The notes: generated by a model from the sequence alone, not told the origin. A DNA stretch of 30,756 nt from Breznakia blatticola (GCF_004365815.1 NZ_SODD01000030.1:1-30756); one strand, 5' to 3'; shown: positions 3,802 through 21,080, counted from the stretch's first letter. Numbers and translations: made by a program.

Positions 3802-5667
3802 ATGAATGTTCTAGATATAAAACAACCATCAGATATTAAAGTGTTATCCATACCTGAATTAGAAAAACTTGCGAAGGATATTCGTAGTTTTTTAGTTGAA
3901 TCGATAGCACAAACAGGTGGTCATTTATCTAGTAATTTAGGGATTGTTGAATTAACGTTAGCCATGCATTATGTATTTCAATCACCAAGTGATAAGTTTA
4001 TTTATGATGTGGGACATCAGTCGTACATTCATAAAATACTTACTGGACGTGCAAAAGAGTTTTCAAAACTACGTCAATACCAAGGAATCTCAGGATTTCA
4101 AAAACGCAAAGAAAGTGAACATGACTCATGGGAAGCAGGTCACTCTTCTACTGCGCTAAGTGCTGCACTTGGTTTTGCAGTTGCACGTGATTTGAATAAA
4201 GAAGACTATCAAGTATTACCAGTTGTTGGTGATGGTAGTTTAGCTAGTGGAATGTCATTTGAAGCACTCAACGAAATTGGTAGTGAGAAACGCAAAATGG
4301 TGATTGTGTTTAATGATAATGAGATGTCCATTTCTAAAAATGTTGGAGCGATGTCACAAACATTCACAAAACTTCGTTCAAGTAAACGATATACTGGATT
4401 CAAACATGGATTACAGGAATTTTTAAGTAGTAATAGCGCAGGTCAAAATGTATTAGAAGGATTGCGCGATTTAAAAAATAACATTAAGCATACAGTTGTT
4501 GATGCTTCATTTTTCGATGATTTTGGTCTTGATTATATTGGACCAATTGATGGTCATAATCTACACGAATTGATTCGTGTTTTTGAAGTTGTAAAGAAAC
4601 ATGATGGACCAATTGTTGTACATGTAATTACGCAAAAAGGAAAAGGATACTTGCCTGCACAATTAGATGATACTGGTGCTTGGCATGGGGTTGGTAAATT
4701 TGATGTAGCAAGTGGGAAAATGCTAAGTACAAAACCAATTGATCATAAAGATTGGAGTTCCATCATGTCTGATGGTCTACTTCGCTTAGCTAAAGAAAAT
4801 GAAGATATTGTAGCTCTGACACCAGCAATGATGGCAGGTTCAAAACTACAAGGGTTTTATGAAACATATCCAGAACGCTTCTTTGATTGTGGTATTGCCG
4901 AAGAACATGCAGTGACATTTGCTGCAGCTTTAGCAGCAGCAGGGAAGCGACCATTTATTTCCATTTATTCATCGTTTTTACAACGAGCATATGATCAAAT
5001 GAATCACGATATTGCGCGTATGAATTTACCAGTTGTAGTTTCTGTAGACCGTGCTGGTTTAGTTGGTGAAGATGGAGAAACACATCATGGTCTATTTGAT
5101 ATTGCAATGTTTAGAAATGTACCAAACCTTGTCTTATCACAACCAAAAGATGCAAAAGAAGCACATGATTTATTATATAGTGCCTTTCTACATCAAAAAC
5201 CATGGCTAATTCGAATTCCAAGAGGAAGTGTTGCAGATAATCAAGATCCATTTACAGCGATTGAAATTGGTTCTTGGAGTAAATGGCAAGCAAGTGATGC
5301 AGTCGATGCATTTATTCTTACGTATGGTCCAGATGTAGATAACTGTATTCAAAAGGCAAAATTAGAAAAACTGAATATTGCTGTTATAAATGCGCGTTTC
5401 TTTAAACCACTTGATACAGCGATGTTACAGCAAATACTAACAAGTAGTAAACCGGTTGTCATTTACGAAACAGATATGAAAGCTGGTGGTTTATCTAGTG
5501 CTGTTTTAGAATATGCAAATGATTATAATATCGATGCAAATATTGTACGTTTAGGAATTGATGATCATTTTGTTTGTCATGGAAATACGCAAGTATTACG
5601 CCAAGTTGAACATATTGATCTTGACAGTTGCTTTATGGAACTAAAAAAGGTGCTTACATGCGATTAG
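3802..5667 (+). CDS. dxs: 1-deoxy-D-xylulose-5-phosphate synthase
   Basis: 621 aa with AGGAG RBS. GGHLSSNLG, GHSSTALSAALG and the TPP-binding GDGSLASGMSFEALN motif. Transketolase-like C-terminal half. Confidence 0.97.
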   Translation: MNVLDIKQPSDIKVLSIPELEKLAKDIRSFLVESIAQTGGHLSSNLGIVELTLAMHYVFQSPSDKFIYDVGHQSYIHKILTGRAKEFSKLRQYQGISGFQKRKESEHDSWEAGHSSTALSAALGFAVARDLNKEDYQVLPVVGDGSLASGMSFEALNEIGSEKRKMVIVFNDNEMSISKNVGAMSQTFTKLRSSKRYTGFKHGLQEFLSSNSAGQNVLEGLRDLKNNIKHTVVDASFFDDFGLDYIGPIDGHNLHELIRVFEVVKKHDGPIVVHVITQKGKGYLPAQLDDTGAWHGVGKFDVASGKMLSTKPIDHKDWSSIMSDGLLRLAKENEDIVALTPAMMAGSKLQGFYETYPERFFDCGIAEEHAVTFAAALAAAGKRPFISIYSSFLQRAYDQMNHDIARMNLPVVVSVDRAGLVGEDGETHHGLFDIAMFRNVPNLVLSQPKDAKEAHDLLYSAFLHQKPWLIRIPRGSVADNQDPFTAIEIGSWSKWQASDAVDAFILTYGPDVDNCIQKAKLEKLNIAVINARFFKPLDTAMLQQILTSSKPVVIYETDMKAGGLSSAVLEYANDYNIDANIVRLGIDDHFVCHGNTQVLRQVEHIDLDSCFMELKKVLTCD

Positions 5668-6428
5668 ATCAATATCTTGCAACATATAAAGATGTGAAAT
5701 CACGTGCTGCAGCACAAGATTTAATCAAAGAGGGATATGTGGAAGTGAATAAAAAAATCATTCGTAAACCTGCATATACAATCAATGATACAGATTGTAT
5801 TGTTGTGCATAAATCAGAACATGAGTTTGCAAGTCGCGGTGGTTTGAAATTGTTTTATGCAATTGAGAAATACCATGTGCAACTTTCAGATAAAGTTGTG
5901 CTTGATATTGGTGCGTCCACTGGTGGATTTACTGATGTTTGTTTGCAGCAAGGTGCACGTCACGTATATGCTGTTGATGTTGGCGTTGATCAGCTTGCAC
6001 AATCTTTAAAAGATAATCCAAAAGTAAGTAATCTTGAAAGTTGTGATATTCGCACACTAGATCCAGCGAAGATCCAACAAGTTATTGATTTTATATGTAT
6101 TGATGTATCTTTTATATCACTGAAGAAAATCTTTGATGTTGTTGTTACATATTGTAATGATAAAACAGAATTGCTTGTATTGGTAAAACCACAATTTGAA
6201 GTAGGGAAAAACTTTGTGAATAAACAAGGTGTCGTAAAAGATAAAAATGTACATAAACGACTATTGCTAGACTATATGGATTACTTCCAATCTCTTGGAT
6301 TTGGAATCAAAGCAATCGATAAAGCCGCAATACAAGGTCGTTCAGGTAATCAAGAATATATTTTCTATATGAAATATCATAGTGTATCAAAATCGATACA
6401 CATTCAAGATGTATTGAAGGGAGAATAA
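5658..6428 (+). CDS. tlyA: TlyA-family rRNA (cytidine-2'-O)-methyltransferase
   Basis: Start at ATG 5658 (MRLDQYL). N-terminal S4 domain, then SRGGLKL and the SAM-binding LDIGASTGGFTD motif. It lies between dxs and recN, like B. subtilis yqxC. Confidence 0.9.
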   Translation: MRLDQYLATYKDVKSRAAAQDLIKEGYVEVNKKIIRKPAYTINDTDCIVVHKSEHEFASRGGLKLFYAIEKYHVQLSDKVVLDIGASTGGFTDVCLQQGARHVYAVDVGVDQLAQSLKDNPKVSNLESCDIRTLDPAKIQQVIDFICIDVSFISLKKIFDVVVTYCNDKTELLVLVKPQFEVGKNFVNKQGVVKDKNVHKRLLLDYMDYFQSLGFGIKAIDKAAIQGRSGNQEYIFYMKYHSVSKSIHIQDVLKGE

Positions 6429-6429
6429 G

Positions 6430-8079
6430 ATGATTCTAAGTTTATATGTCAAAAATTTCGTGTTAATTGATGAACTAACTTTGGATTTTCAAAATGGATT
6501 TTCTGCGTTCAGTGGAGAAACGGGGGCTGGGAAATCGCTTTTTATTGATGCCATTTCTATATTGTGTGGTGCAAAAGTATCACCAAGTTTTATTCAAAAA
6601 GGTGCTCAAAAAGCAGTACTTGAGATGTGTGTGGAAGTACATAAAAAGCATCCATCACTACAGAAATTAGCTGAAGCAGAAATTGAAGTTGAAGATCACA
6701 GTTTTATTATTTCAAAAACATTTACACAAGAAGGAAAAAGTACAACGAAGGTAAATTCACGTAATGTTACTGCTGCTTTCTTGCGCGATCTAATGAGTGA
6801 CGTTATCGATATTCACTCACAACACGATTCACAGTACTTACTCAATCCAAAATCTCATCTTGGTTTGCTTGATAATTTTGTCCAAGACGATGATTTAACA
6901 AGTAGCGTACGTACTGCATACAAAGACTATAAACAGAAACAACAAGAATTAGATACACTATTGGAAAAAGAATTTAATCAAGAGGATCTTGATTTCTTTA
7001 TGTTCCAATTAGATGAAATTAATGCGCTTGATGCATCAGAAAATGAAATTGAAGAACTAGAAAACTATCAAAAGGATATGATGGCTTTTGAGCGCGTTTC
7101 TAAGGCGCTAAACGAAGCAATGCAAGCAATTGATACATCGAGTTATGAAAATATTTATGAAGCTACAAAAGCGTTAGATGAGCTTGAACAAGAAGCGTTA
7201 GTAAAAATCAAAGAAGAAATGTTAAATGCATATTACTTAATCGATGAGCAAAAAGATGCTCTACATGCTTATGCAAATTCACTTGAATATGATGAAGAAA
7301 AACTTAATCAAGTTCAAGAGCGTTTATTTCAAATTCAAAAGATTGTGCGTAAACATGGACACACATTTAAAGATGTGCTTCTTAAAAAAGAAGAACTAGT
7401 ATCAAAAATAGAACTATTTAGTGATCGTGATGCAGCAATTGCATTAAAACAACAAGAAATCGAGCAACTATATAAAGAGTTTTATAAGCATGCTAGTAAA
7501 TTAAGTGAAAAGCGTAAACAACGTGCAAAAGAATTAGAAAAAGAAATTCAAGTACAGTTAGAAGATTTATATTTACCAAATGCGAAATTTGAAATCACAT
7601 TTACAAACCAAGATAGTGTACATGGAATTGATGGAGTGGAATTCTATATCTCGATGAATAAAGGAGAAAGCTTACGTCCACTGACAAAAGTAATTTCTGG
7701 TGGGGAACTTTCACGTTTAATGTTAGGATTGAAAGTTATCTTCACAAAACTACAACATATTGAAACAATTATCTTTGATGAAATTGATACAGGAGTATCT
7801 GGTAAAGTGGCATATGCGATTGGACAAAAGATGAAAGAATTAGCAAAAGTAACGCAAGTATTCTCAATTACGCATTTGGCTCCAGTAGCTGCACACGCAG
7901 ATGCACATTATTTAGTAAGAAAAGAAGAAGTAAATGATCATACAAGTACTTCAATTGTATCACTATCTTATGATGAACGAATTCGAGAACTTGCAATGAT
8001 TTCAACAAATTCACTTTCAGATAAAGCCCTTGATGCCGCAAAAGAACTACTAGATTCATGCGAGGAATCTCATGGCTAA
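6430..8079 (+). CDS. recN: DNA repair protein RecN
   Basis: 549 aa. Walker A GETGAGKS, long coiled-coil middle, signature SGGELSRLML, Walker B IIFDEIDTGVSG. Confidence 0.95.
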   Translation: MILSLYVKNFVLIDELTLDFQNGFSAFSGETGAGKSLFIDAISILCGAKVSPSFIQKGAQKAVLEMCVEVHKKHPSLQKLAEAEIEVEDHSFIISKTFTQEGKSTTKVNSRNVTAAFLRDLMSDVIDIHSQHDSQYLLNPKSHLGLLDNFVQDDDLTSSVRTAYKDYKQKQQELDTLLEKEFNQEDLDFFMFQLDEINALDASENEIEELENYQKDMMAFERVSKALNEAMQAIDTSSYENIYEATKALDELEQEALVKIKEEMLNAYYLIDEQKDALHAYANSLEYDEEKLNQVQERLFQIQKIVRKHGHTFKDVLLKKEELVSKIELFSDRDAAIALKQQEIEQLYKEFYKHASKLSEKRKQRAKELEKEIQVQLEDLYLPNAKFEITFTNQDSVHGIDGVEFYISMNKGESLRPLTKVISGGELSRLMLGLKVIFTKLQHIETIIFDEIDTGVSGKVAYAIGQKMKELAKVTQVFSITHLAPVAAHADAHYLVRKEEVNDHTSTSIVSLSYDERIRELAMISTNSLSDKALDAAKELLDSCEESHG

Positions 8080-9244
8080 GGTTATCTTTCACATTGATTT
8101 AAATGCGTATTTTGCCAATGCTGAAGTAATTCGCAACAGTTCTTTAGAAGGACAACCCATCGTTGTTGGTGGGTTAAGTAAGCGTAGTGTTGTATGTACA
8201 GCAAGCTATGAAGCACGTGCATATGGTGTCCATTCTGCGATGCCTTTACATGAAGCTTTACGTTTATGTCCAGATCTTATTGTGGTACAAGGAGATCATG
8301 ATTACTATAAAGAACTATCAAAAAAGTTTTTCGCTTTTATAAAAACCTATACACCGTTTGTTGAAATCGCAAGTATCGATGAATGTTATGCAGATATGAG
8401 TGAAGTGATAAAAAACTATGAACGTCCTCTTGATTTAGCTTGGGAGATTCAACAACGTCTAAAAGATGAATTAAGATTAAAATGTTCGATTGGGATTGGT
8501 CCAACAAAATTTCTAGCAAAGATGGCAAGTGATCGTTATAAACCACTTGGAATCTATGTAATTCGCAAACAAGAATTGGATAAGAAATTGTGGCCACTTC
8601 CAATTGGCGATATGATGGGGATTGGAAAGAAAACAGCACCGATACTGATTCAACATGGTGTTGAAACGATTGGAGATTTAGTTAAGGATGAAAATTATGC
8701 AATTGTTCGTCCTATACTAGGTAAACATACACTCCAAATGATTCAAAAAGCCAAGGGAATAAGTAGTGATCGAATTGAATTCTCCAACACGGTACAATCA
8801 ATTTCTCAATCGACAACGTTTGTTAGCGATGTTGAAGAGTATAACGAACTTGTTGGTATCTTGCGTAAATTAGCAGCTTCACTTGCAAATCGAGCAAAAC
8901 AAAAAGCGATGTCAGGAAAACTGATATCTGTATCAATTCGCTATTTTGATTTTCGTAATGTAGTTCGATCAATTACAGTAGAAGAATATATCCAAGATGC
9001 AGATAAGATACTTGAAGTTGCTTTATCTTTGTTTGATGAAAACTATGAGGACATTCCAATTCGTCATTTAGGAATTGGGTTAGGAAGTTTAAAGTCAGAT
9101 AATGAAAGAGTTGATCAATTAAGTTTATTCAACTATGAAAGCAAGTACAAAAAACTAGATATCATTGATGAACTGAATAAAGATATACTAGGAAGTAAAT
9201 TGGTATATGCTTCAAGTTTATTAGATAAAAAGGATCATAAGTAA
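8072..9244 (+). CDS. dinB: DNA polymerase IV (Y-family)
   Basis: 390 aa. HIDLNAYFANAE, SIDECYADMS and the little-finger region. The ATG overlaps the recN stop (ATGGCTAA, 8-nt overlap). Confidence 0.95.
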   Translation: MAKVIFHIDLNAYFANAEVIRNSSLEGQPIVVGGLSKRSVVCTASYEARAYGVHSAMPLHEALRLCPDLIVVQGDHDYYKELSKKFFAFIKTYTPFVEIASIDECYADMSEVIKNYERPLDLAWEIQQRLKDELRLKCSIGIGPTKFLAKMASDRYKPLGIYVIRKQELDKKLWPLPIGDMMGIGKKTAPILIQHGVETIGDLVKDENYAIVRPILGKHTLQMIQKAKGISSDRIEFSNTVQSISQSTTFVSDVEEYNELVGILRKLAASLANRAKQKAMSGKLISVSIRYFDFRNVVRSITVEEYIQDADKILEVALSLFDENYEDIPIRHLGIGLGSLKSDNERVDQLSLFNYESKYKKLDIIDELNKDILGSKLVYASSLLDKKDHK

Positions 9245-9279
9245 GTGTTTTTTTACAAAAATGTAAGAAACACTTTTTT
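9243..9279 (+). terminator. Rho-independent terminator of the nusB...dinB gene string
   Basis: AAGTGTTT (9243-9250) pairs with AAACACTT (9268-9275) and is followed by T6. It overlaps the dinB stop codon. Confidence 0.7.
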
Positions 9280-9464
9280 GTTAGTAAGCGTAAAATAATG
9301 CACGGATTTTCAAAAACAATATACAAATGATATGTCAAACAACTTACATGTTGAATGATATCCAACATATGTGATAGGCGTGCTAAGGGATATTGGTGTC
9401 AGTGTGGAACGACTGTTGCCAACAAACCCAAATTTATCTGGAGAGTTCTTTGTCCAAGTTAAGC

Positions 9465-9514
9465 GTAAAAAAAGACTGAGGTTGAATGTCAAAATAATGA
9501 CACCTCAGTCTTTT
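9465..9514 (-). terminator. Strong intrinsic terminator, mainly minus-strand polarity
   Basis: Perfect 11-bp stem AAGACTGAGGT (9472-9482) / ACCTCAGTCTT (9502-9512). A7 lies on the + side, giving U7 when read on -. Only T4 follows on +. Confidence 0.7.
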
Positions 9515-9701
9515 CAGGTAGCGCTAAATGCTTTACACTTACAATTGAATCAATAAATTCCTCTACTTCAATTTCTCCATTTTCTTCATTATATGTTGCT
9601 AAAACTGATGTCTGAAAAATATAGAAAAGCTTATAAACGGTTATACAAGATGTAATAAGTACCATTAAATATTTTTTTATTTAATGGTATGTTATCCTTT
9701 C

Positions 9702-9715
9702 TTTTTTTTTTTTTT
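9702..9715. repeat. T14 (A14 on minus) homopolymer tract
   Basis: Counted directly: 14 consecutive T at 9702-9715. This is the longest homopolymer I saw in the window. Confidence 0.95.
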
Positions 9716-9765
9716 ATGAATGTTATAAAGAGAATAAATAAGTACAATAAAATCTAAAACGGTCC

Positions 9766-9861
9766 CTATGTGAAAAAATTATTATCAACAATATTAAGTA
9801 CTATTATTATTGTTGATGATATAACTAGGAAAATGTCCACAATATAGAATCCCTCCTTCAT
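9766..9861 (-). CDS. Candidate 31-aa hydrophobic mini-protein (MKEGFYIVDIFLVISSTIIIVLNIVDNNFFT)
   Basis: ATG at 9861. Alternatively a GTG at 9840 lies 10 nt after GGAGGG (9851-9856). One predicted TM helix. It is below the 60-aa ORF-track cutoff, has no recognised homology, and lies upstream of the minus-strand terminator at 9465-9514. Confidence 0.25.
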   Translation of the reverse strand: MKEGFYIVDIFLVISSTIIIVLNIVDNNFFT

Positions 9862-10094
9862 TATTTTAGTTACATACGTAAGATATCTACTTCTATTATG
9901 TTATTTTAAAACATAAAAACAAGACTTATATTCAGATACGAATTTTGATATGATTATAGTGTTTGAAATATAAGGTAATCACCAATTGTCTTACGTTTAC
10001 TTTCGTTATACAATAATCAGTAAAGTATATGTATTTGAGTTGTACTGTGTAGTTATCTTTGCGATAATTGAACTAGAAAAAATGGAGGAATATT

Positions 10095-10622
10095 ATGAGT
10101 AAAGGGATTGTACTATACAAGTCAAAATATGGTGCCACAAAGCAATATGCAACTTGGTTAGCAGAAATGACTGGTTTTGATTTAGTAGAAATAAGTAAAG
10201 CAAATATACACGATGTAGAAACATATAACACAATCATACTTTGTGGTGGTGTGTATGCATCATCAATTGCTGGCTTATCGTTTTTGAAAAAGCATGCAAA
10301 GGCATTACATGGTAAAAAAATAGTGATTTTAGCAGTTGGAGCAACTCCATACGAAGAACATGTACTTGATACGATACGAGAACACAATTTAAAGCATGAA
10401 TTAAAAGATCTACCATTATTTTATGCACATGGAGTCTTTGATGAAAATAAGATGTCATTTCGTGATCGAACACTGATTAAGATGTTAAGAAAGTCTTTAA
10501 AGAAAAAAGATCCAAGTACATATACTACATTGGAACAAACCATCATGTCAGTTAATCAACAAGAAGCAAACAATATTCAAAAAGAGTATTTAGCTCCATT
10601 AATTGCTTATCTATCTAAGTAG
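10095..10622 (+). CDS. Flavodoxin-domain protein (HemG/flavodoxin_5-like)
   Basis: 175 aa with GGAGG RBS at 10084-10088. The N-terminus IVLYKSKYGATKQYATWLAE and ...ILCGGVYA are typical of this family. Confidence 0.8.
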   Translation: MSKGIVLYKSKYGATKQYATWLAEMTGFDLVEISKANIHDVETYNTIILCGGVYASSIAGLSFLKKHAKALHGKKIVILAVGATPYEEHVLDTIREHNLKHELKDLPLFYAHGVFDENKMSFRDRTLIKMLRKSLKKKDPSTYTTLEQTIMSVNQQEANNIQKEYLAPLIAYLSK

Positions 10623-10650
10623 GTATTTATATCTACTTTTTTTGATTATT

Positions 10651-10659
10651 TGATATAAT
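10651..10659 (+). promoter_or_regulatory. Extended -10 promoter element directly upstream of xerD
   Basis: TGaTATAAT at 10651-10659. Only 6 nt separate the -10 from the xerD ATG (10666), and no Shine-Dalgarno is present. Confidence 0.45.
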
Positions 10660-10665
10660 ACGTAT

Positions 10666-11559
10666 ATGAAACTACATGAAGCGATTGAAAACTACATTCA
10701 CTATATTAGTGTTATTGATCAAAAGGCACTGACAACAATTGACAACTATAAAAATGATCTTGTACAATATGAGTCATTTATGCACGAACATAATATAGAA
10801 GATGTAGAAACAATCGAGTACAAAGATATTGAAGCGTTTATTCAAAATCAAGCGTTATCAAAAAAGATGAATTCCATAAACCGGATGATTGTATCAATTC
10901 GTAACTTTCATTACTATGTCACATATAATTTTCCAAGTGTTGCAAACCCAGCAATGCATGTAAAACTAAGTAAAAAAGGAAACAAACTACCTTCATTTTT
11001 AAATGAGAATGATTTAGAAATGTTTATAGGTGCATTTAATGATAAAAAAGATGTTGATTTATATCAACATGCGATTATTGAAGTCATGTATGGTTGTGGA
11101 TTGCGCGTAAGCGAGGTTTGTAACTTGCAAATGAATCAATTACACCTTCAACAAGGCATAATTAAAGCTGTAGGGAAGGGAAATAAGGAACGCCTTATTC
11201 CAATCAATCAACATGCAATTGATTGCTTACAGTTGTATTTTGATGGTCCAAGAACATTTTGGAATACAAAGAACCTTCATTATGTGTTTGTTAATCAAAG
11301 AGGGAATCGACTAACAAGACAATATGTTCATTCGATGATCAAAAAGAAACTTACGGAGTTAGAGATGAATAATACAATTTCTGCGCACTCATTTCGACAT
11401 AGTTTTGCAACACACTTATTAAATGGTGGTGCAGATTTGCGTAGTGTCCAGGAACTACTTGGTCATAGTGATATATCGACAACACAAATATATACACACA
11501 TTCAAAGTGATCGTTTAAAACATGAATATTTACAAGCAATGAACAAAAAGAAGAAATAG
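10666..11559 (+). CDS. xerD: Site-specific tyrosine recombinase XerD (XerC/XerD family)
   Basis: 297 aa. Catalytic motifs GLRVSE, HSFRHSFATHLL and LGHSDISTTQIYTH. The last is closer to XerD than to XerC. The XerD versus XerC assignment is tentative. Confidence 0.85.
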   Translation: MKLHEAIENYIHYISVIDQKALTTIDNYKNDLVQYESFMHEHNIEDVETIEYKDIEAFIQNQALSKKMNSINRMIVSIRNFHYYVTYNFPSVANPAMHVKLSKKGNKLPSFLNENDLEMFIGAFNDKKDVDLYQHAIIEVMYGCGLRVSEVCNLQMNQLHLQQGIIKAVGKGNKERLIPINQHAIDCLQLYFDGPRTFWNTKNLHYVFVNQRGNRLTRQYVHSMIKKKLTELEMNNTISAHSFRHSFATHLLNGGADLRSVQELLGHSDISTTQIYTHIQSDRLKHEYLQAMNKKKK

Positions 11560-11588
11560 TTAACTTTATCTAACTACATCTTCTTTTT
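11549..11588 (+). terminator. Terminator-like hairpin after xerD
   Basis: AGAAGA (11549-11554) pairs with TCTTCT (11579-11584), with an inner TAGTTA/TAACTA helix, then T5. It includes the xerD stop. Confidence 0.55.
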
Positions 11589-11593
11589 ATATT

Positions 11594-11649
11594 ATTAATA
11601 AACACAATTTGCATTGTTTATTGTATTAATAAACGATATATGATAATGT
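11594..11649 (+). promoter_or_regulatory. Promoter plus operator-like repeats upstream of the DUF2087 regulator gene
   Basis: 10-bp direct repeat ATTAATAAAC at 11594-11603 and 11625-11634. Imperfect inverted repeat AATAAACACAAT / ATTGTTTATT (11597-11622). TTGTAT (11621-11626), 17 nt, TGaTAATGT (11641-11649). Confidence 0.45.
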
Positions 11650-11671
11650 TTATATAAAGGATGTGATATAT

Positions 11672-12421
11672 ATGAAGAAAATTGAAGAATTACGTTTAGA
11701 TGAATTAAAATGTGGTTATACAGTACATGATGATGTTTATGCATGTATTTTTTGTGATCAAAAATATGAAACTGGACACATTTATACATGTAAAGATGAA
11801 CTATTAGATGCACATGCAGCTATGAAGCACCATATTTGTGAGGTTCATGGTGGTACTTTACAAGAGTTATTTTCACTTGATAAAAAACAAACGATGCTAA
11901 GTGATGTGCAAAAACGGATGCTTTCATATTTTGCGGATAATAAAAGTGATAAAGAGATTGCCAAGATTACACATACATCATTATCTACGGTTCGACAACA
12001 GCGTTACCAATTAAAAGAAAAAGCAAAGCAAGCTAAGGTGTTTCTTGCAATGTACGAGCTCTCAGAGCAATCGAGTTCCTTTGAAGCGTACATTCCTATA
12101 CATCAAAGCGCGACAATGGTCGATGATCGATATTTAATGACGCTAAAAGAAGAACAAGAGTTCATTGATCGATATTTTAGTAGTACAAGTCCATTGCAAC
12201 TAAAAATGCTACCAGCAAAGCAAAAAGCAAAGTTAGCAGTATTACGTATGATAGCTAAACAATTTGCTGAGAATAAAGAATATACAGAAATGGAAGTTAA
12301 TGAAATACTAAAAGCAATCTACGATGATTTTGTTACGATACGTAGGTACATGATTGAATATGGTTTCTTAAAACGTACAAACGATGGAATTCGATACTGG
12401 AAACCAGAAACTGTACAATAA
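11672..12421 (+). CDS. DUF2087-domain putative transcriptional regulator with N-terminal Cys/His cluster and central HTH
   Basis: Start at ATG 11672 (AAAGGA upstream). The C-terminus LPAKQKAKLAVLRMIAKQF...YTEMEVNEIL...RRYMIEYGFLKR...YW matches my memory of DUF2087. The middle segment SDKEIAKITHTSLSTVRQQRYQLKEKA looks like an HTH. The N-terminus carries CIFCDQ...C...H..H. Confidence 0.8.
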   Translation: MKKIEELRLDELKCGYTVHDDVYACIFCDQKYETGHIYTCKDELLDAHAAMKHHICEVHGGTLQELFSLDKKQTMLSDVQKRMLSYFADNKSDKEIAKITHTSLSTVRQQRYQLKEKAKQAKVFLAMYELSEQSSSFEAYIPIHQSATMVDDRYLMTLKEEQEFIDRYFSSTSPLQLKMLPAKQKAKLAVLRMIAKQFAENKEYTEMEVNEILKAIYDDFVTIRRYMIEYGFLKRTNDGIRYWKPETVQ

Positions 12422-12442: not shown

Positions 12443-12470
12443 ATATTACATAATACACATTATGCGAAGT
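12443..12470 (-). other. dif: dif site (XerC/XerD chromosome dimer resolution site)
   Basis: The minus strand reads ACTTCGCATAA-TGTGTA-TTATGTAATAT. Compare E. coli dif GGTGCGCATAA-TGTATA-TTATGTTAAAT and B. subtilis dif ACTTCCTAGAA-TATATA-TTATGTAAACT. It lies exactly at the +/- gene-orientation switch and 0.9 kb from xerD. Confidence 0.7.
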
Positions 12471-12503
12471 AAAGCATTCATAATATGTGTTATGAAGGTA
12501 AGT

Positions 12504-12542
12504 AAACCCCCACTACTTATAATAAATGTAGTGAGGGTTTTT
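12504..12542. terminator. Terminator between convergent transcription units
   Basis: AAACCCCCACTAC (12504-12516) pairs with GTAGTGAGGGTTT (12528-12540), 13 positions with 1 mismatch. T5 follows on +. The U-tract on - is weaker. Confidence 0.8.
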
Positions 12543-12549: not shown

Positions 12550-12777
12550 TTATTTAGATTTTTCTGTCTTGTTTGCTTCTCTATGTTCTTTTCTGGCATT
12601 AATATAGATTTCAATAACTGTAATTGTTAGAAGTAATCCCAAGAACTCTGAAGCTAAATTCATACAAAAGTCATGCAAATTGAAGTTAGGATTATCAAAT
12701 ACCCCAATTGCGAATGTCACAGAAAATATAATAACAATGATAATGTATGAAATGAGTAGTTTTTTATTCTTAAACAT
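12550..12777 (-). CDS. Small membrane protein, 2 predicted TM helices (75 aa), unknown function
   Basis: GGGGGA RBS just upstream. Hydrophobic segments LLISYIIIVIIFSVTFAIGVF and FLGLLLTITVIEIYI, with a basic C-terminal tail. It is the last gene of a 4-gene minus-strand cluster. Confidence 0.6.
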   Translation of the reverse strand: MFKNKKLLISYIIIVIIFSVTFAIGVFDNPNFNLHDFCMNLASEFLGLLLTITVIEIYINARKEHREANKTEKSK

Positions 12778-12794
12778 AAATCCCCCTAAGTCGT

Positions 12795-13088
12795 CTATCG
12801 ATGCTGTAAAGTAACTTCTACTTGATCACCAATCGATTTGCCTATTTGATTTCGAATCGCTTTCGTGATTCCTAAGATGTAACAAATATCACCATTTTCT
12901 TTTTTTAATCCCATGTTAACGATACTTCCATCGTATGGAACTCCATCAAAGGTTGCATGTACTGGTAAGCGTCCTTTTTGAAATTCTTTCTTTATATCAA
13001 AAGGAACTTCAATATATGCGCCTCCCTTACCTATTGTGGCTTCTTTTATAATTGTTTTAAATGTATATGGAAATGTGATGTTGTTCAT
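12795..13088 (-). CDS. DUF1905-domain protein
   Basis: Start at ATG 13088 (GAAAGGA 7 nt upstream), not at the ORF-track start 13193. The pattern YTFKT...GKGGAYIEVPFDI...GRLPVHATFDG.PYDGS...IRNQIGKSIGDQVEV fits DUF1905. Confidence 0.8.
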   Translation of the reverse strand: MNNITFPYTFKTIIKEATIGKGGAYIEVPFDIKKEFQKGRLPVHATFDGVPYDGSIVNMGLKKENGDICYILGITKAIRNQIGKSIGDQVEVTLQHR

Positions 13089-13093
13089 TGTAA

Positions 13094-13624
13094 TTATCCT
13101 TTCAAGGCAAGTTTTAGTTTTTTTATTGCCCATGTGTAATGTGCACAAGTTGCTGATATACAATAACTTGCAATATTTGATGATCCAACCCAAGGATACA
13201 TCGCTTTGGTGAATAGTACTTCTTCAGATAGTGATTCAATGACATCAATTACAGCCTTGTGTGAAGCTAACAACATACTTTTCGCGTCATTTAAGCTTGT
13301 TTGTTGGTGTTTTTTCCAAAACTCGACATTCATATCAGCATAGTTGTTCCATTTGTATGGTGCTGGTAAAAACGGTGTATTTTCACCATCATCCATGTTT
13401 CGTTTTAACCAGTGTAAGAGAAGTTGTTGCCACTCATATACATGGATAAGAACATCGCGTAAATTCTTGTCACGTGCCCAGTGTGCTTCTTTCTTACCAG
13501 TTATATCATACGTGAAGTTTGCTTCTTGTTGTGTAGGAGTCATACTATTGATAATCTCTCCTAGTTTGTGAAATTCTGTGGTTGCTTGATCAAGCAATTC
13601 TTTTTTTGTCTTTGGTCTAGCCAT
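13094..13624 (-). CDS. ClbS/DfsB-family four-helix-bundle protein (DUF1706)
   Basis: 176 aa with AGGGGA RBS. PKTKKELLDQATTEFHKL...MTP... and ...LLLHWLKRN...FLPAPYKWN...WKK... align by eye with E. coli ClbS (SKEELIKAINSNF...; LVLHWH...FPEEGFKWNELG). Confidence 0.8.
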   Translation of the reverse strand: MARPKTKKELLDQATTEFHKLGEIINSMTPTQQEANFTYDITGKKEAHWARDKNLRDVLIHVYEWQQLLLHWLKRNMDDGENTPFLPAPYKWNNYADMNVEFWKKHQQTSLNDAKSMLLASHKAVIDVIESLSEEVLFTKAMYPWVGSSNIASYCISATCAHYTWAIKKLKLALKG

Positions 13625-13636
13625 TGTAGTATCCCC

Positions 13637-13918
13637 TTATTTAATATTTTGTGCTTTATTTTTTTGTTGTAAGTAGATAATGATATATGCAACAAATAAA
13701 CATAGATTAATGAAAATAGCTGGCACAGTTGTAATTGCATTCAATTCTGTTAAATCAGCTAGATAGCCATATATGATTCCACTTGCTCCAGAAACAATCA
13801 TAATCATAAGTGTAGATCCCAAACCTAAAAGTGTTTTCGCTCTAAGCAGATTCATCACCATTAATAATATAGTAGCAATGCTTAGTGCATTACAAAAGAA
13901 ATCCAATGTATTGTTCAT
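13637..13918 (-). CDS. Small membrane protein, 3 predicted TM helices (93 aa), unknown function
   Basis: GGAGG RBS at 13926-13930. Three hydrophobic segments and a basic C-terminus. It is the first gene of the 4-gene cluster, with a 12-nt gap to the ClbS-like gene. Confidence 0.6.
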   Translation of the reverse strand: MNNTLDFFCNALSIATILLMVMNLLRAKTLLGLGSTLMIMIVSGASGIIYGYLADLTELNAITTVPAIFINLCLFVAYIIIYLQQKNKAQNIK

Positions 13919-13935
13919 AATTATCCTCCAAATTG

Positions 13936-13959
13936 AAAAAAAGAAGCACAGTGGCTCCT
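13936..13959 (-). terminator. Weak terminator after hup (read-through plausible)
   Basis: On the minus strand, AGGAGC-cactgt-GCTTCT (6 bp with one G.U) is followed by T7. The next RBS follows immediately. Confidence 0.4.
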
Positions 13960-13971
13960 TTTTGATCTAAA

Positions 13972-14253
13972 TTACTTAACTGCTTCTTTTAATGCTTTAG
14001 AAGCTTTGAATTTAGGTGCTTTTGATGCAGCGATTGTTAATTTTTCACCAGTTGCAGGGTTTACACCTTGACGTGCAGCTCTTTCAACTACTTCAAATTT
14101 TCCAAATCCTGAAATATCAACTTTACCACCATCTGCAAGAGTTTTAGTAACTTCTGCGAATACTGTTTCAACTGCTGTAGTAGCGTCTTTCTTTGTAATT
14201 CCAATAGTTTCTGCTAACGTTTCAGCTAATGCTTTCTTGTTTAATGTTTCCAT
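13972..14253 (-). CDS. hup: DNA-binding protein HU
   Basis: 93 aa with GGAGG RBS. GFGKFEVVERAARQGVNPATGE...KAPKFKASKALKEAV is the canonical HU/IHF fold signature. Confidence 0.95.
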   Translation of the reverse strand: METLNKKALAETLAETIGITKKDATTAVETVFAEVTKTLADGGKVDISGFGKFEVVERAARQGVNPATGEKLTIAASKAPKFKASKALKEAVK

Positions 14254-14280
14254 ATCTTATACCTCCGAACATCTAGGTTA

Positions 14281-14309
14281 ATTATAGTCTATCTAAAAAA
14301 ATATAACAA
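14281..14309 (-). promoter_or_regulatory. Candidate sigma-A promoter of hup
   Basis: On the minus strand, TTGTTA (14309-14304), 17 nt, TATAAT (14286-14281). Confidence 0.6.
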
Positions 14310-14349
14310 GGAAAACACATTACGAAAGTGCTAAAAAATACGATAAATA

Positions 14350-15069
14350 CTACTTTTTATCAATAATTTGCAAGATTACGTGCCCTGCGAGCATAATTCC
14401 AGCGATATTTGGCATAAATGCCACGCTTCCAGGCACGTTTCGCTTGGTGATATTTGGGTTATCTTCCCAAGGAATCATTGGTTTTATTGGTTGTTCTGTA
14501 GACCAAAGAACCTCAACTTTTTTGATATGTCTAGCTTTTAATTCTCTACGTAATACCTTAGCTACAGGATCATAACTCGTCTTTGAAATATCACCAATTT
14601 GTAGTTTTGTAGGGTCCAGCTTATTTCCAGTTCCCATGGAACAAATAATTGGTATTTGTATTTCTTTTGCTTTTTCGATAAGTAAAATCTTAGCTACCAT
14701 CGTATCAATACAGTCAATAATGTAATCCACTCCAACTAAATCGATTTCATTAATTGTATCCTTTAATACAAACGTTTCATATGTATGAATTATGGCATCA
14801 GGATTGATATCAAGTAAACGTTTTTTCATTACTTCTACTTTGCTTTGACCAATGGTAGAGTGTAAAGCGACAATTTGACGGTTAAGATTACTTAACGACA
14901 CGGTATCATTATCGATAATACTAACTTCTTTTACACCAGAGCGAACTAATGTCTCAATACAATGTCCCCCTACTCCACCAACGCCAAAAACAGCCACATG
15001 GCTGTTTTGTAAGGTTTTGATTCCGTTTTCTGTTAGTAGCATTTCGCTACGAATAAATTGATTTTCCAT
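14350..15069 (-). CDS. tcdA: tRNA threonylcarbamoyladenosine dehydratase (ThiF/MoeB-like)
   Basis: GVGGVGG Rossmann motif, DNDTVSLSNLNRQ and C.D. I prefer ATG 15069, 5 nt after the gpsA stop. The ORF-track start 15093 is a GTG and would overlap gpsA by 20 nt. Neither candidate has a clear SD. Confidence 0.85.
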   Translation of the reverse strand: MENQFIRSEMLLTENGIKTLQNSHVAVFGVGGVGGHCIETLVRSGVKEVSIIDNDTVSLSNLNRQIVALHSTIGQSKVEVMKKRLLDINPDAIIHTYETFVLKDTINEIDLVGVDYIIDCIDTMVAKILLIEKAKEIQIPIICSMGTGNKLDPTKLQIGDISKTSYDPVAKVLRRELKARHIKKVEVLWSTEQPIKPMIPWEDNPNITKRNVPGSVAFMPNIAGIMLAGHVILQIIDKK

Positions 15070-15073
15070 AACG

Positions 15074-16066
15074 TTATTCTGATTTAAGTTCACGTAACAT
15101 TAAGTCTTTTGCACTTTGTTTTGGCTCTTTACCTTCATATAGTACCTTATAGACTTCTTCAATAATTGGCATATCGATATTCTTGGCTTTAGCAAGTTCA
15201 TGTACAACTTTTGCTGTACGAACACCCTCTACGGTTTTTTTGTTTGTATCCCAGTAGATTTGTGCATCATTGGCTTTACCGATTTCATATCCTGCTTGGA
15301 AGTTACGAGAGTGTCTACTAGTTGCAGTAACAATTAAGTCACCAATTCCAGTTAGTCCCATAAAGGTTTCTTTCTTACCACCATATGCACTACCAAAGCG
15401 CATAACTTCAGCAATACCACGCGTGATTAGTGCTGCACGTGTGTTATCTCCATAACCTATTCCAGCTAAGATTCCACTTGCAACAGCAATTGCATTTTTC
15501 AAGGCAACACCTAATTCAGCACCAATTTCATCATTTCCTGTATATACACGGAAATAGTCATTTGAGAATACACGTTGTATCGTTTTCGCATCTTCTTCAT
15601 TTTGTGAGACTGCAGTGATTGTTGTTAGTAAACGTTCAACTACTTCCTCTGCATGACTAGGTCCAATTAAGGATACAACACTGCTTAATTTATCAGCTGG
15701 TACACTTGCACGAATCACATCGCTCATTCGTGCATTTGTATCAGGATGGAATCCTTTAGAAGTATTCACAAAGATTGCTTTCTTATCTAAGTATGGTGCA
15801 ACTTGCTCACAAACACTTTGAATTGCAATTGTTGGCACACTAAGTAAAACAATATCACTTCCTGTAACTGTAGCTAAATCTGTTGTCGCTTTAATTGCTG
15901 GGTTTAATTTTACCCCAGGAAAAAATGTTGAGTTAAGATGATTGTTTGCTATATCATCAATTTGACTTTCGTCGATTCCCCATATTGTGACATCTACATT
16001 GTTGTCTGCTAGCACTTGTGCTAATCCAGTTCCCCATGAACCACTTCCAATAATTGTTACTTTCAT
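15074..16066 (-). CDS. gpsA: NAD(P)H-dependent glycerol-3-phosphate dehydrogenase
   Basis: 330 aa with GGAGGA RBS. N-terminal IIGSGSWGT dinucleotide fold, NTSKG and GIGDLIVT motifs. It lies downstream of der, as in Bacillus. Confidence 0.95.
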   Translation of the reverse strand: MKVTIIGSGSWGTGLAQVLADNNVDVTIWGIDESQIDDIANNHLNSTFFPGVKLNPAIKATTDLATVTGSDIVLLSVPTIAIQSVCEQVAPYLDKKAIFVNTSKGFHPDTNARMSDVIRASVPADKLSSVVSLIGPSHAEEVVERLLTTITAVSQNEEDAKTIQRVFSNDYFRVYTGNDEIGAELGVALKNAIAVASGILAGIGYGDNTRAALITRGIAEVMRFGSAYGGKKETFMGLTGIGDLIVTATSRHSRNFQAGYEIGKANDAQIYWDTNKKTVEGVRTAKVVHELAKAKNIDMPIIEEVYKVLYEGKEPKQSAKDLMLRELKSE

Positions 16067-16102
16067 TATTCCTCCATGAATGATTTACAAGCTCTTAAGA
16101 TT

Positions 16103-17407
16103 CTATCTTGCACGAGCATTAATGTGGATGGTTGTACCTGTAAAGTTAAACGCATCCCGTAAACGGTTCTCCAAGAATCTTTTGTATGAAAAATGTAATA
16201 ATTCCGGGTTATTTACAAATAATACAAAGGTTGGTGGACTTACACTTACCTGACTTGCATAATAAATACGTAAACGTACTCCATTATGTGTAGGTGGTGG
16301 TGTAACTAATTGTGCATCCAAAATAACTTCATTAACAACATTTGTTGGTAGACGAAGTGTTGAATAATCATGTACTTCATCAATTAATGGAATTAATGTT
16401 TGAATACGACTACGATTTAATGCACTTACAAAGGCAATTGGTGCATAATCTAAATATTTAAATTCTTCACGAATCAATTCAGTGACTTGATTCATTGTTT
16501 TTTCATCTTTATCGACAGTGTCCCATTTGTTGTAAACAATGATAACACCCTTCCCTGCTTCATGTGCATATCCAGCGACGTGTTTATCCTGTTCACGGAT
16601 TCCACTTTCACCATCTAACACAACAAGGACAACATCACTACGTTCAATGGCTGCCATCGCACGTAAGATGGAATACTTTTCGATGTTTTCGTAAATCTTT
16701 CCACGCTTACGAATACCTGCAGTATCGATAACGACATAATCCTTACCATTTACTTTGAATGGTGTATCTACTGCATCTCGTGTAGTTCCTTCAATATTAG
16801 AAACAATAACGCGTTCTTGGTTTAAGATCGCATTTACTAAACTTGATTTTCCAACGTTTGGACGTCCAATGATACAAAATTTTGTCATTTCATCATAATC
16901 TTTACGTTGTACATTTTCAAATGAATCAATGATGCTATCTAATACATCACCAATACCAATACCGTGAACTCCACTGACAGCAATTGGTTCTCCAATTCCT
17001 AGTGAATAGAATTCATAGATATTTGCTTGTAATTGGGTGTCATCGATTTTATTTACTGCCAAAATCACTGGCTTTTTTGTTTTACGTAATAAAGAAGCGA
17101 TATATTCATCATCTTTTGTTACGCCATCAATTCCACTCACGACAAATACAATAGAATCAGCTTCTTCTAAAGCGATATCCACTTGCATTTGTATTTCTTC
17201 TTTAAATGGTTGGTTGTCCAGTTGAATTCCACCAGTATCAATAATTCGAAATTCTTTGGTTAACCATTCTGCTTTTGCATACACACGGTCTCTAGTGACA
17301 CCAGGTGTATCTTCAACAATGGATTTACGTTCTCCAATCATTCGATTAAATATAGTAGATTTTCCGACATTTGGGCGACCAACGATTGCTGTAATCCCAC
17401 TAATCAT
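16103..17407 (-). CDS. der: Ribosome-biogenesis GTPase Der (EngA)
   Basis: 434 aa with two tandem GTPase domains (GRPNVGKS twice, DTGG/DTAG, NKID/NKWD) plus a KH-like C-terminus. 8-nt overlap with the cmk stop. Confidence 0.97.
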
Positions 17408-18065
17408 TTTGTTTCTCTTTCTTTTGTATAATCGACAACACTTTATTGACTACTTGTTCAATATTCAATAAAGATGTATCAATTTCTATGGCATCATCTG
17501 CTTTTTTTAGCGGTGATGTCTCTCGATTCATATCTTGGTAGTCGCGTTGCTCAATATCTTTGGCAATTTGATCGTAATCAACATCGACTCCTTGCATTTT
17601 ATATTCTTCAAAACGACGTTTTGCTCTTGCTTCAACAGAAGCAACCATAAATATTTTTACTTCTGCATCAGGCAATACGACAGTTCCTATATCACGGCCA
17701 TCTAGAATAAATCCTTTAGCTTTGGCCATTTCTCTTTGTTTTGCGACCATCTTCTCACGAACGAGTAAGATTTTAGCAATACTACTTGTACGCATACTAA
17801 TTTCATTGGTACGAATGTTTTTAGAAACATCTTCTCCATTGATAAATACGTTTCCTGCTTTATCAAATGAAATCTCCATGTGTTGCAACATCTCATCTAA
17901 TGCGATTAAATCATTTAGTTCAATGTTATTTTTTAGACTTTGGTAAGCACAGCAACGATACATCGCCCCTGTGTCAATATGCACATAACCTAACTGTTTT
18001 GCTAACAGTTTCGCGATTGTACTTTTACCAGCCGCGCTTGGTCCATCAATCGCAATGTTAATCAT
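17400..18065 (-). CDS. cmk: Cytidylate kinase
   Basis: 221 aa with GAGGAG RBS. P-loop [18 protein letters not shown] and GRDIGTVV. Confidence 0.95.
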
Positions 18066-18080
18066 ACAAAAACTCCTCTC

Positions 18081-18923
18081 TTACATTTTAATGTTCATAA
18101 TCCAGTATACAACAGTAACAACTACTGCTAGTAGCAATACGATTAAGACTGCAATTATGATATTTAAAAGACGGTTATTTTTATCGACTCCATCATTTAA
18201 GGTATGAATTTCTTCTTCTTGCTCGTGAAGTTTTGTTTTCAGTTGCAATGTTTGATCAAGTAATTCATCATAATTTGTTGTATCTTCATCATCTTGGCTA
18301 GAAACACTAGGCATAGACATGTTTGTTGTTACATCTTTAGCAGTTGGTAAAACAATTGTTTGTTCACTTTCTACTGCTACTTCAGGTTGTACGATTTCTT
18401 CACGTACATCTTCAAGTGGTTGTACTTCTTCCTGGTGAATTAAATCTTGCACTTGTCGTGCAATTTCTTGTGTCATTGACATACGATCTTCTTCATCCAT
18501 CGCTTGGATATTCGGAATTTCGTTAGTTGTATACACACTAGGGTTTTCAATCACTCCACTTGCTTCATGAACCTCAGTTTTTTGAGCTTCATTATCCATA
18601 TATGATGCACGTTTTTGACGTTGCTTACTTGATAATTGTTGCAAGATATCAAGTCTTGTATCTTCACTTTCACGAACACCTTTTTTCATATTATAATCAC
18701 GTACCTCTTGTAAGAAGTCATCCAAGTATTCGTTTTTAAACTCTCCTGTTGTTTCTGAGTTTGTATAATTTACCGAACGTTTTTGATGTGAGGGTGCTTT
18801 ATTTTCCTCAACTTGTTTATTTAACTGTTGTAATGCTTGTTGCACAGCTTGTTCATCATCTTGGTTTTGATTTAAGGTTTGACGAAGTGCCTCGTATTTT
18901 TTTACTCTTGAATTTTCACTCAT
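18081..18923 (-). CDS. Hypothetical acidic, Gln/Glu-rich tail-anchored membrane protein
   Basis: I place the start at the second ATG (18923), because the GGAGGA of the first codons (ATGGAGGAT) sits 7 nt upstream of it. About 250 aa of low-complexity polar sequence is followed by a single C-terminal TM (LLNIIIAVLIVLLLAVVVTVVYWI). No family recognised. Confidence 0.65.
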   Translation of the reverse strand: MSENSRVKKYEALRQTLNQNQDDEQAVQQALQQLNKQVEENKAPSHQKRSVNYTNSETTGEFKNEYLDDFLQEVRDYNMKKGVRESEDTRLDILQQLSSKQRQKRASYMDNEAQKTEVHEASGVIENPSVYTTNEIPNIQAMDEEDRMSMTQEIARQVQDLIHQEEVQPLEDVREEIVQPEVAVESEQTIVLPTAKDVTTNMSMPSVSSQDDEDTTNYDELLDQTLQLKTKLHEQEEEIHTLNDGVDKNNRLLNIIIAVLIVLLLAVVVTVVYWIMNIKM

Positions 18924-18946
18924 TTTCAAATCCTCCATACTTGTCT

Positions 18947-18955
18947 ATTATAACA
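18947..18955 (-). promoter_or_regulatory. Extended -10 promoter element for the tail-anchored protein/cmk/der/gpsA string
   Basis: The minus strand reads TGTTATAAT (18955-18947), downstream of the efp terminator. Confidence 0.45.
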
Positions 18956-18986
18956 AATTCCAAATTGCATGCATACCGATATTCAA

Positions 18987-19007
18987 TAAAAAAGCCCCTT
19001 TCGGAGC
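18987..19007 (-). terminator. Rho-independent terminator after efp
   Basis: On the minus strand, GCTCC-gaaa-GGGGC is followed by T6. Confidence 0.7.
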
Positions 19008-19020
19008 ATTTTGTTATGAT

Positions 19021-19578
19021 TTATGCACGCCCTGCATATTTTCCATCAGATGTAGATACAAGAATGATTTCATCTTGATCGATAAATAATGGAACACGGA
19101 TGCTATATCCAGTTTCAAGAACAGCATTCTTTTGTGCGTTTGTTGCTGTATCTCCTTTTACTGCTGGTTCACTTTCAACGATTTTTAGAGCGACTTTATC
19201 AGGTAATACGACTCCAAGAATTTCGTTTTCAAACATAGTGATAACAACATTGTCATTTTCTTTTAAGAAGTTCATTTCCCATTCTACATTGCTTTTAGGA
19301 AGTTCTACTTGTTCATAACTTTCGTTATCCATAAGAATTAAGTTTTCACCATCATCGTATAAGTATTGCATTTCTCTTTTATCGATGTGAGCTGGTTCTA
19401 CTTTATCTGATGAGTTGAATGATAACTCTGTAATTGCTCCTGTACGTAAGTTACGCACTTTCGCTTTGATTGTTGTTGCACTACGAGCCGTTTTGTTGTG
19501 TGAGTAGTCAAGTACAACATAAATATTTCCATCTTGTTGGAATGTAATTCCTGGTTTTAATTCGTTTGATTGTAACAT
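19021..19578 (-). CDS. efp: Translation elongation factor P (Arg32 loop variant)
   Basis: 185 aa with AGGAG RBS. It aligns without gaps to B. subtilis EF-P from residue 1 through residue 44, and other segments match by eye (RNLRTGA, MQYLYDDG, EPAVKGDTA, ETGYSIRVPLF). The loop is HNKTARSAT instead of HVKPGKGAA. Confidence 0.95.
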   Translation of the reverse strand: MLQSNELKPGITFQQDGNIYVVLDYSHNKTARSATTIKAKVRNLRTGAITELSFNSSDKVEPAHIDKREMQYLYDDGENLILMDNESYEQVELPKSNVEWEMNFLKENDNVVITMFENEILGVVLPDKVALKIVESEPAVKGDTATNAQKNAVLETGYSIRVPLFIDQDEIILVSTSDGKYAGRA

Positions 19579-19630
19579 AAGTTCTCCTTTTTCTTGTCTA
19601 TTGTAAACTTTTTTTCATCTTTTTAAAAGA

Positions 19631-21049: not shown

Positions 21050-21080
21050 TGTATCATACCTTTCTATTTTGCCACATCTT

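Follow-up and report, generated by a model that had tools for sequence, protein, structure and literature searches.

Introduction

At the dif site a XerC/XerD-type pair of recombinases adds one crossover, and a dimeric chromosome is thereby converted into two monomers at cell division. In Bacillota, the replichore junction is well approximated by the switch of gene orientation. The system of Escherichia coli comprises XerC, XerD and FtsK, while in Bacillus subtilis the recombinases are CodV (XerC) and RipX (XerD) and dif is a 28-bp sequence of 11-6-11 layout. Single-recombinase systems have also been described, i.e., XerS/difSL of streptococci and lactococci, which has a 31-bp site, and XerH/difH of epsilon-proteobacteria. 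In the dif survey of Kono et al. 2011 (PMC3025954), xerC was mostly found near dif and xerD mostly near the origin, and replication was found to terminate near dif, not at dif, typically within about 1.4% of the genome. No Erysipelotrichaceae genome was included in that survey, and a search of the literature retrieved no paper joining "dif site" with Erysipelotrichaceae.

A complete contig of 30,756 bp from the draft assembly of Breznakia blatticola (Erysipelotrichaceae, insect gut) was analyzed, and this whole stretch of DNA is called the window throughout. It contains a 28-mer that, as judged from its sequence and its genomic setting, is very probably the chromosomal dif (dimer-resolution) site of this species. 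The canonical XerCD/dif kind to which it is assigned is already known.

Results

The 28-bp Site and Its Setting

Read on the minus strand from 12470 to 12443, the site has the sequence ACTTCGCATAATGTGTATTATGTAATAT, and it is present in a single copy in the 30.7-kb window. The first-pass annotation had divided it into ACTTCGCATAA / TGTGTA / TTATGTAATAT, in the 11-6-11 layout of dif, and this division could be reproduced (Table 1). The two arms form an imperfect inverted repeat, of which the inner CATAA and TTATG are a perfect dyad. The XerD-type arm consists of TTATGTAA followed by three variable outer bases.

Table 1. Positions of the features in the window, counted from its first nucleotide.
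Feature	Position	Strand	Basis or remark
Left arm, 12 housekeeping CDS, all on plus	177..12421	+	
Gene for a XerD-type tyrosine recombinase, 297 aa	10666..11559	+	Profile models, structure match, NCBI name XerD
Predicted dif, 28-bp Xer recombination site	12443..12470	-	Layout, dif similarity, weight matrix, conservation
XerC-type arm ACTTCGCATAA	12470..12460	-	
Central region TGTGTA of the predicted dif, 6 bp	12459..12454	-	
XerD-type arm TTATGTAATAT	12453..12443	-	
Degenerate inverted dif-like copy, core CATAA-TATGTG-TTATG at 12479-12494	12475..12502	.	4 bp from the predicted dif
Terminator-like hairpin AAACCCCCACTAC, 11-nt loop, GTAGTGAGGGTTTTT	12504..12540	.	Inverted-repeat and fold search
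Right arm, 19 CDS, all on minus	12550..29599	-	
rpsD, sole plus-strand gene on the right side	29887-30504	+	

The site is located between two converging ORFs, a plus-strand ORF for a DUF2087 protein (11663-12421) and a minus-strand ORF for a membrane protein of 75 aa (12550-12777). A gap of 128 bp had been noted at this flip of orientation, and the same distance was obtained from stop codon to stop codon. The order of the elements in the gap is the DUF2087 stop codon, 21 nt, the predicted dif, 4 nt, the degenerate palindrome, the terminator-like hairpin, 9 nt, and the second stop codon. The predicted dif is thus placed between the DUF2087 stop codon and the hairpin, i.e., in the 3' untranslated region of the DUF2087 gene. 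The hairpin has a stable stem on both strands, a T-run serves either side, and it is common to both converging transcription units. It is kept in Erysipelotrichaceae bacterium MTC7. A simple terminator scan reported nothing in the window and missed this hairpin because its loop is longer than 8 nt.

The gap also contains a degenerate, inverted dif-like copy. The window has two cores of the type CATAA-N6-TTATG, against 0.2 expected, and both are found in the 128-bp gap, so that their co-location is statistically non-random. The second core is 30 bp away from the dif core, it is inverted, and it is complementary to the dif core at 14/16 positions, enabling the two to pair as a hairpin of 16 bp. 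It also occurs in the close relative Breznakia sp. L002/L003 (98%), and it is absent from MTC7, Breznakia sp. PF5-3 (L004) and a Breznakia MAG (L006). With the weight matrix described below the degenerate copy scored less than -1.5 bits and was not among the six best sites of the window, and it is probably not a functional dif.

Comparison with Described dif Sites

The dif sequences given in Kono et al. 2011 (PMC3025954) served as references. Of the 28 positions, 22 agree with E. coli dif (XerC arm 8/11, center 5/6, XerD arm 9/11) and 21 with B. subtilis dif (XerC arm 8/11, center 4/6, XerD arm 9/11). The nine XerD-arm matches previously counted against both species were correct, and the alignment also agrees with the earlier remark that the inner XerC-arm sequence CGCATAA is the same as in E. 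coli. The outer XerC arm, in contrast, is ACTT here and GGTG in E. coli, and the XerD arm is TTATGTAATAT here and TTATGTTAAAT there. The center TGTATA of E. coli dif is found exactly in two of the relatives (L004 and L006). With B. subtilis dif the 28-bp 11-6-11 layout, ACTTC...AA and TTATGTAA are held in common, whereas three segments differ, namely the inner XerC arm (CGCATAA here, CCTAGAA in B. subtilis), the center (TGTGTA versus TATATA) and the outer XerD arm (TAT versus ACT). The dif predicted for Lactobacillus casei (ACTTCGCATAATATATATTATGTAAACT; Kono et al. 2011, supplementary file 2) has an identical XerC arm (11/11) and agrees with the site at 24/28 positions overall, but the center and the last three bases of the XerD arm differ, and L. 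casei belongs to the Lactobacillales.

The value of these plain similarities was determined with random windows, the best of 60 of which reached 21 matches compared with the 22 of the site. In AT-rich DNA the Hamming similarity discriminates rather poorly, and therefore a log-odds weight matrix was made from the 15 distinct Firmicutes dif predictions in the supplementary table of Kono et al. 2011. With this matrix the site scored 24.4 bits, and the runner-up in the window only 4.9. In 500 random windows of matched composition the maxima had a mean of 3.9 and a standard deviation of 3.4, the largest was 18.5, and none of the 500 reached 24.4. The score of the site is thus about six standard deviations above the random maxima, while it is below the range of the training sites of the matrix, which themselves score 28.9-43.6.

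Conservation in Related Bacteria

Related loci (L001, L002/L003, L004, L006, L007 and L010) were retrieved through homologues of XerD. The site is identical at 27/28 positions in Breznakia sp. L002/L003 (XerD identity 98%) and at 28/28 positions in MTC7 (L001; 88%). In Breznakia sp. PF5-3 (67%) as well as in the Breznakia MAG (59%) it reads ACTTCGCATAA-TGTATA-TTATGTAATTT. Two distant Erysipelotrichaceae lineages, both with a XerD identity of 51%, have ACTTCGCATAA-TATATA-TTATGTAATAA (L007) and ACTTCGCATAA-TGTTAA-TTATGTAAGAT (L010). Across five other Erysipelotrichaceae lineages, whose XerD identity lies between 98% and 51%, conservation of the XerC arm is complete (11/11) and TTATGTAA is kept in the XerD arm, whereas four different centers were found across the lineages and the flanks could not be aligned. 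MTC7 illustrates this on a short scale; its 28-mer is unchanged, the remainder of the gap has diverged, and the neighboring proteins are 88% identical. Each of the 20-kb loci of the relatives has the site in a single copy. Invariant arms, a drifting center and unalignable flanks together are the pattern that is expected of a recombinase target.

The position of the site was also compared. In the Breznakia clade it lies exactly in the convergent gap, while in L007 and L010 it is found off the convergent switch, one gene (0.6-1.1 kb) inside the minus-strand block. In two more distant loci, L008 and L009 of C. innocuum, no dif was found within 10 kb of xerD. The linkage of xerD and dif decays with the distance of relationship. 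None of the best 120 XerD homologues was located on a contig longer than 300 kb.

The Motif in Metagenomic and Viral Contigs

A scan of metagenomic contigs with ACTTCGCATAA-N6-TTATGTAAT yielded at least 120 contigs with GC contents of 26-68%. Among the matches listed, TGTATA (51) and TATATA (25) were the commonest centers, and the motif was located within an ORF of at least 100 aa in only six contigs. Contigs with at least 2.5 kb on either side of the motif were regarded as informative for gene orientation; among the matches listed there were 23 of these, and the genes converged on the motif in 19 and diverged from it in none.

The motif was also found in five contigs from IMG/VR that are classed as viral (L011-L015, 34-68% GC). 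In L012 it is located at 10368-10395, 140 bp after a gene for a Tn916-type integrase, and a resolvase gene follows. L015 is a phage contig with genes for a capsid protein and a depolymerase, and its motif (9634-9661) is near the contig end. The viral-classed contigs may be elements that reside at or use the host dif, or the motif may stem from host flanks in provirus calls.

Gene Orientation and Nucleotide Skew

The predicted dif separates two blocks of genes with opposite orientation. The left arm encodes a HAD hydrolase, NusB, XseA, XseB, IspA, Dxs, a TlyA-like protein, RecN, DinB, a flavodoxin-like protein, XerD and the DUF2087 protein. The first-pass annotation had 12 of 12 CDS on the plus strand between 177 and 12421, which was confirmed with xseB (2734-2952) included in the count. 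For the right side it had given 19 of 20 CDS on the minus strand; this is correct if the count is extended to 30504 and includes rpsD, but within 12550-29599 the number is 19/19. Beginning at the dif-proximal end, the right arm encodes a 75-aa membrane protein, a DUF1905 and a DUF1706 protein, a 93-aa membrane protein, Hup, TcdA, GpsA, Der and Cmk, followed by a hypothetical protein, Efp, Ffh, a DUF1801 protein, a 5'-nucleotidase, a HAD hydrolase, RlmA, ThiI, a NifS-like protein and EzrA. The genes of the window are core chromosomal genes, and genes of phages, plasmids or mobile elements were not found in it. The orientation switch is conserved in the relatives.

On the left the total GC skew ranged from +0.05 to +0.2, on the right it was between about -0.02 and -0.23, and its sign changed at about 12.4 kb, in line with the earlier spot checks, in which G exceeded C on the plus strand on the left and C exceeded G on the right. 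Codon position 1 is G-rich on any coding strand. The flip of the total skew resulted mainly from this position, and the caveat of the first-pass annotation that the skew is confounded by the coding strand was therefore justified.

At fourfold sites, the left arm had a coding-strand skew of +0.29 (162 G, 89 C) and the right arm one of +0.01 (173 G, 170 C). The cumulative difference of G and C on the plus strand rose from 0 to 75 over the left arm and then stayed flat, from 75 to 69. The change point is hence sharp and coincides exactly with the gap, but the curve flattens and a mirror-image reversal is missing, and thus the skew is no independent proof that the replication forks meet at the site. 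The claim of a replication terminus is supported at the local level only, in that the gene-orientation switch is real and conserved. Among the relatives, the fourfold skew was symmetric in L006 and L007 and one-sided in MTC7, L004 and L010, and in MTC7 and L010 the plus strand was G-rich at fourfold sites on both sides. Among the metagenomic matches listed, the same fourfold asymmetry was seen in 11 of 16 low-GC contigs, with pooled values of +0.18 versus +0.03. The one-sided neutral skew could result from the codon bias of the gene set, or from forks that meet to the XerC-arm side of dif.

Several further signals were evaluated. The GC3 skew of -0.46 of rpsD, which is oriented head-on, was considered as support for a replication skew and was dropped; the co-oriented and highly expressed efp has a value of -0.43, so that the rpsD value represents codon bias. 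The intergenic skew flipped its sign in 7/7 loci, but it is weak evidence because transcribed spacers and ribosome-binding sites are part of these regions. In six lineages, the KOPS-like sequence GGGNAGGG was found nine times in the direction toward the site and never away from it, but the G-rich background hexamer GNAGGG has a ratio of 70:20, and the polarity of GGGNAGGG, which is confounded by the coding strand, is not diagnostic. For GAGAAGGG and GAAGAAG the ratios toward and away from the site were 3:1 and 48:4, respectively, in the six lineages, and these are likewise confounded by the G-richness of the coding strand. A de novo search for skewed k-mers had ordinary coding-strand words at its top, e.g., GATGAA and GAAGAA, and was uninformative.

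The XerD-Type Recombinase and Its Linkage to the Site

The recombinase encoded in the left arm was compared with profile models and solved structures. It scored 289.5 bits with the XerD model TIGR02225, which is below the cutoff of 329.6, and 277.5 bits with the XerC model, again below the equivalog cutoff. The generic Xer subfamily model PRK00283 (tyrosine recombinase) was passed with 286 bits (cutoff 279). The score with the XerS model was only 106.5 bits (cutoff 267). The best match among solved structures is E. coli XerD (1A0P, E 2.7e-49), and the match to XerH is far weaker (E 5.9e-22). The motifs RVSE, GKGNKER, HxxRH, LGH and IYTH could be aligned, and the catalytic Arg, Lys, His-x-x-Arg, His and Tyr are intact. 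A XerC gene was not found in the window or in the related loci that were retrieved. The XerC arm, which equals that of XerC-bearing lactobacilli, is an indirect hint at a XerC partner.

The gene ends 884 bp from the predicted dif, so that the 0.9 kb stated previously was accurate. Located on the XerD-arm side, it is read in the direction of the site. This arrangement recurred in the Erysipelotrichaceae loci L001-L007 and L010, in all of which xerD is found on the XerD-arm side and transcribed toward dif. The distance varied from 45 bp (L006) to 5 kb in the Erysipelotrichaceae and was 1.2-2.2 kb in many metagenomic contigs. Among the metagenomic matches listed, a XerD-like gene was present on the XerD-arm side in 17 of the 54 contigs with enough flank on that side, and on the XerC-arm side in none of the 52 contigs with enough flank there. 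Two annotated metagenomic contigs have the order dinB-xerD-deoB, dif, converging genes. The metagenomic loci with this polarity of xerD include L020, L030, L068 and L073. The neighborhood of xerD (spoIIM and deoB in L007, L008, L010 and L030) presumably resembles the ripX region of B. subtilis.

Discussion

In its layout, its similarity to known sites, its conserved arms, its position at an orientation switch and the presence of a XerD-type gene, the site agrees with canonical XerCD/dif. The assignment as dif, which had been made by the first-pass annotation, is now supported by a weight-matrix score far above chance, by the conservation of the arms, by the convergent switches around the motif in metagenomic contigs, and by the adjoining gene for a XerD-type recombinase. 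The locus resembles that of B. subtilis in that the site is found on a Bacillota chromosome at the junction of the gene-orientation arms and that a RipX/XerD-type recombinase is present. By analogy with E. coli and B. subtilis, TTATGTAAT would be the arm bound by XerD, and ACTTCGCATAA would be bound by a homologue of XerC/CodV whose gene would lie elsewhere. A translocase of the FtsK/SpoIIIE type would join two copies of dif at the septum, and the strands would be exchanged across the 6-bp center. The junction of gene orientation would, by the same analogy, be the region in which the replication forks meet.

A linked recombinase gene that points to the site is also characteristic of the single-recombinase systems. 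However, the site has the canonical 28 bp of dif and not the 31 bp of difSL, the protein scored 106.5 bits with XerS compared with about 290 bits with XerD, its match to XerH is far weaker than that to XerD, and, unlike in single-recombinase systems, the XerC-type arm matches species that have XerC. The combination of an atypical site with a recombinase of the XerS or XerH family was not found here. In the genomes of the survey of Kono et al. (PMC3025954), xerD is mostly near the origin, and its position 0.9 kb from dif is therefore a lineage peculiarity, which is most simply explained by conserved synteny at one replichore end. A more far-reaching view would be that the polar linkage of xerD and dif, which recurs in low-GC contigs that look unrelated, is a functional module and not leftover synteny, and that the one-sided neutral skew might likewise arise because forks systematically meet on the XerC-arm side; this view is considered improbable. 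If the linkage were a module, it may serve the local delivery of XerD to the XerD arm, or this may be a lineage whose divergent Xer protein, with scores under both the XerC and the XerD equivalog cutoff, acts without XerC.

Other explanations for the 28-mer were weighed against its assignment as dif. Palindromes of ATAA and TTAT are common in AT-rich intergenic DNA, and with its 22 Hamming matches the site is just one above the best random window, so that a chance palindrome at a local inversion boundary, lacking a recombination function, had to be considered. This explanation is extremely unlikely and is effectively refuted by the weight matrix together with the conservation; the score is about six standard deviations above the random maxima, the 28-mer is intact in MTC7 and its arms are kept down to 51% XerD identity while the flanks have diverged, and, among the matches listed, 19 of 23 independent contigs have the motif at a convergent switch. 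The palindrome might instead be an operator for the adjacent DUF2087 protein with its HTH-like stretch, or a 3'-UTR hairpin formed with the inverted near-copy. The location in the 3' untranslated region of DUF2087 and the 16-bp pairing of the two cores would fit, and the gap folds better than shuffled sequences (z = -4.1 on the plus and -3.4 on the minus strand). Yet the dif is kept in MTC7, L004 and L006, where the partner core is missing, and it is still there in L006, L007 and L010, where the DUF2087 gene is absent. This persistence led to the rejection of an operator or RNA element, which is scarcely probable also considering that Rfam returned no match and that, among the matches listed, the motif is found in contigs of 26-68% GC with other neighbors.

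It is very unlikely, too, that the site is a secondary dif-like site left or used by a Xer-exploiting integrative element (IMEX), with the true dif elsewhere. The four accessory genes that adjoin the site (12550-13918) and are absent in PF5-3 and the Breznakia MAG, the degenerate inverted core 4 bp away, and the five viral or mobile contigs with the motif, one of them 140 bp from a Tn916-type integrase gene, would be compatible with such an origin. [quoted passage not shown] The remaining alternative accepts a genuine dif and concerns the terminus. The point at which the forks meet, i.e., the GC-skew extremum, could be displaced, most likely to the XerC-arm side, so that the word terminus would be an overstatement. 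To the right of the site the fourfold skew flattens and does not reverse, the same asymmetry was found in 11 of 16 low-GC metagenomic contigs among the matches listed, and a displacement would agree with termination near but not at dif (Kono et al. 2011, PMC3025954). However, with a displaced meeting point all 19 genes of the right arm, der, ffh, efp, cmk and hup among them, would be oriented head-on, which is unusual for Bacillota, the gene arrangement is conserved over a deep divergence, and the asymmetry may be a codon bias of the gene set, given that efp and rpsD have a strong preference for C at codon position 3 whatever their strand. A displaced fork meeting is thus possible, though on the whole unlikely, and it is a realistic qualification that the forks need not meet exactly at dif.

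With the 28-mer taken as dif, the poorly studied insect-gut lineage gains an anchor for the replichore junction, for the orientation of draft contigs and for the Xer target, and a consensus at the level of the family Erysipelotrichaceae can be proposed, ACTTCGCATAA-TRTRTA-TTATGTAAT. The understanding of chromosome dimer resolution is unchanged by this site, which is a textbook kind of feature; only the tight polar linkage of xerD and dif and the one-sided neutral skew are mildly unexpected.

Additional Observations

The gene content beside dif is variable. Between dif and hup, B. blatticola has four small accessory genes (12550-13918) for the 75-aa membrane protein, the DUF1905 protein, a DUF1706/DinB_2 protein and the 93-aa membrane protein. 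Neither Breznakia sp. PF5-3 nor the Breznakia MAG has these genes, hup directly adjoins dif in both, and the set of MTC7 is apparently shorter, as judged from ORF lengths alone. On the other side, the DUF2087 gene (11663-12421) encodes a protein of 252 aa with a C-terminal DUF2087 domain, and inspection by eye revealed a Cys/His-rich N-terminus and a stretch that resembles a LuxR/GerE helix-turn-helix. The gene was found in the closer Breznakia lineages only and is absent from L006, L007 and L010.

Between dinB and the gene for the flavodoxin-like protein, an AT-rich stretch of 850 bp (9245-10094, about 28% GC) is devoid of a convincing ORF, and Rfam and tRNA scans of the window, which included this spacer, gave no match. 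The corresponding spacer in Breznakia sp. L002 has a length of 124 bp only. In L008 (52% identity), a type II CRISPR-Cas locus with the genes for Cas9, Cas1 and Cas2 (15262-20776) follows the block xerD-deoB-murT-gatD, at the position where the other relatives have the convergent switch and dif.
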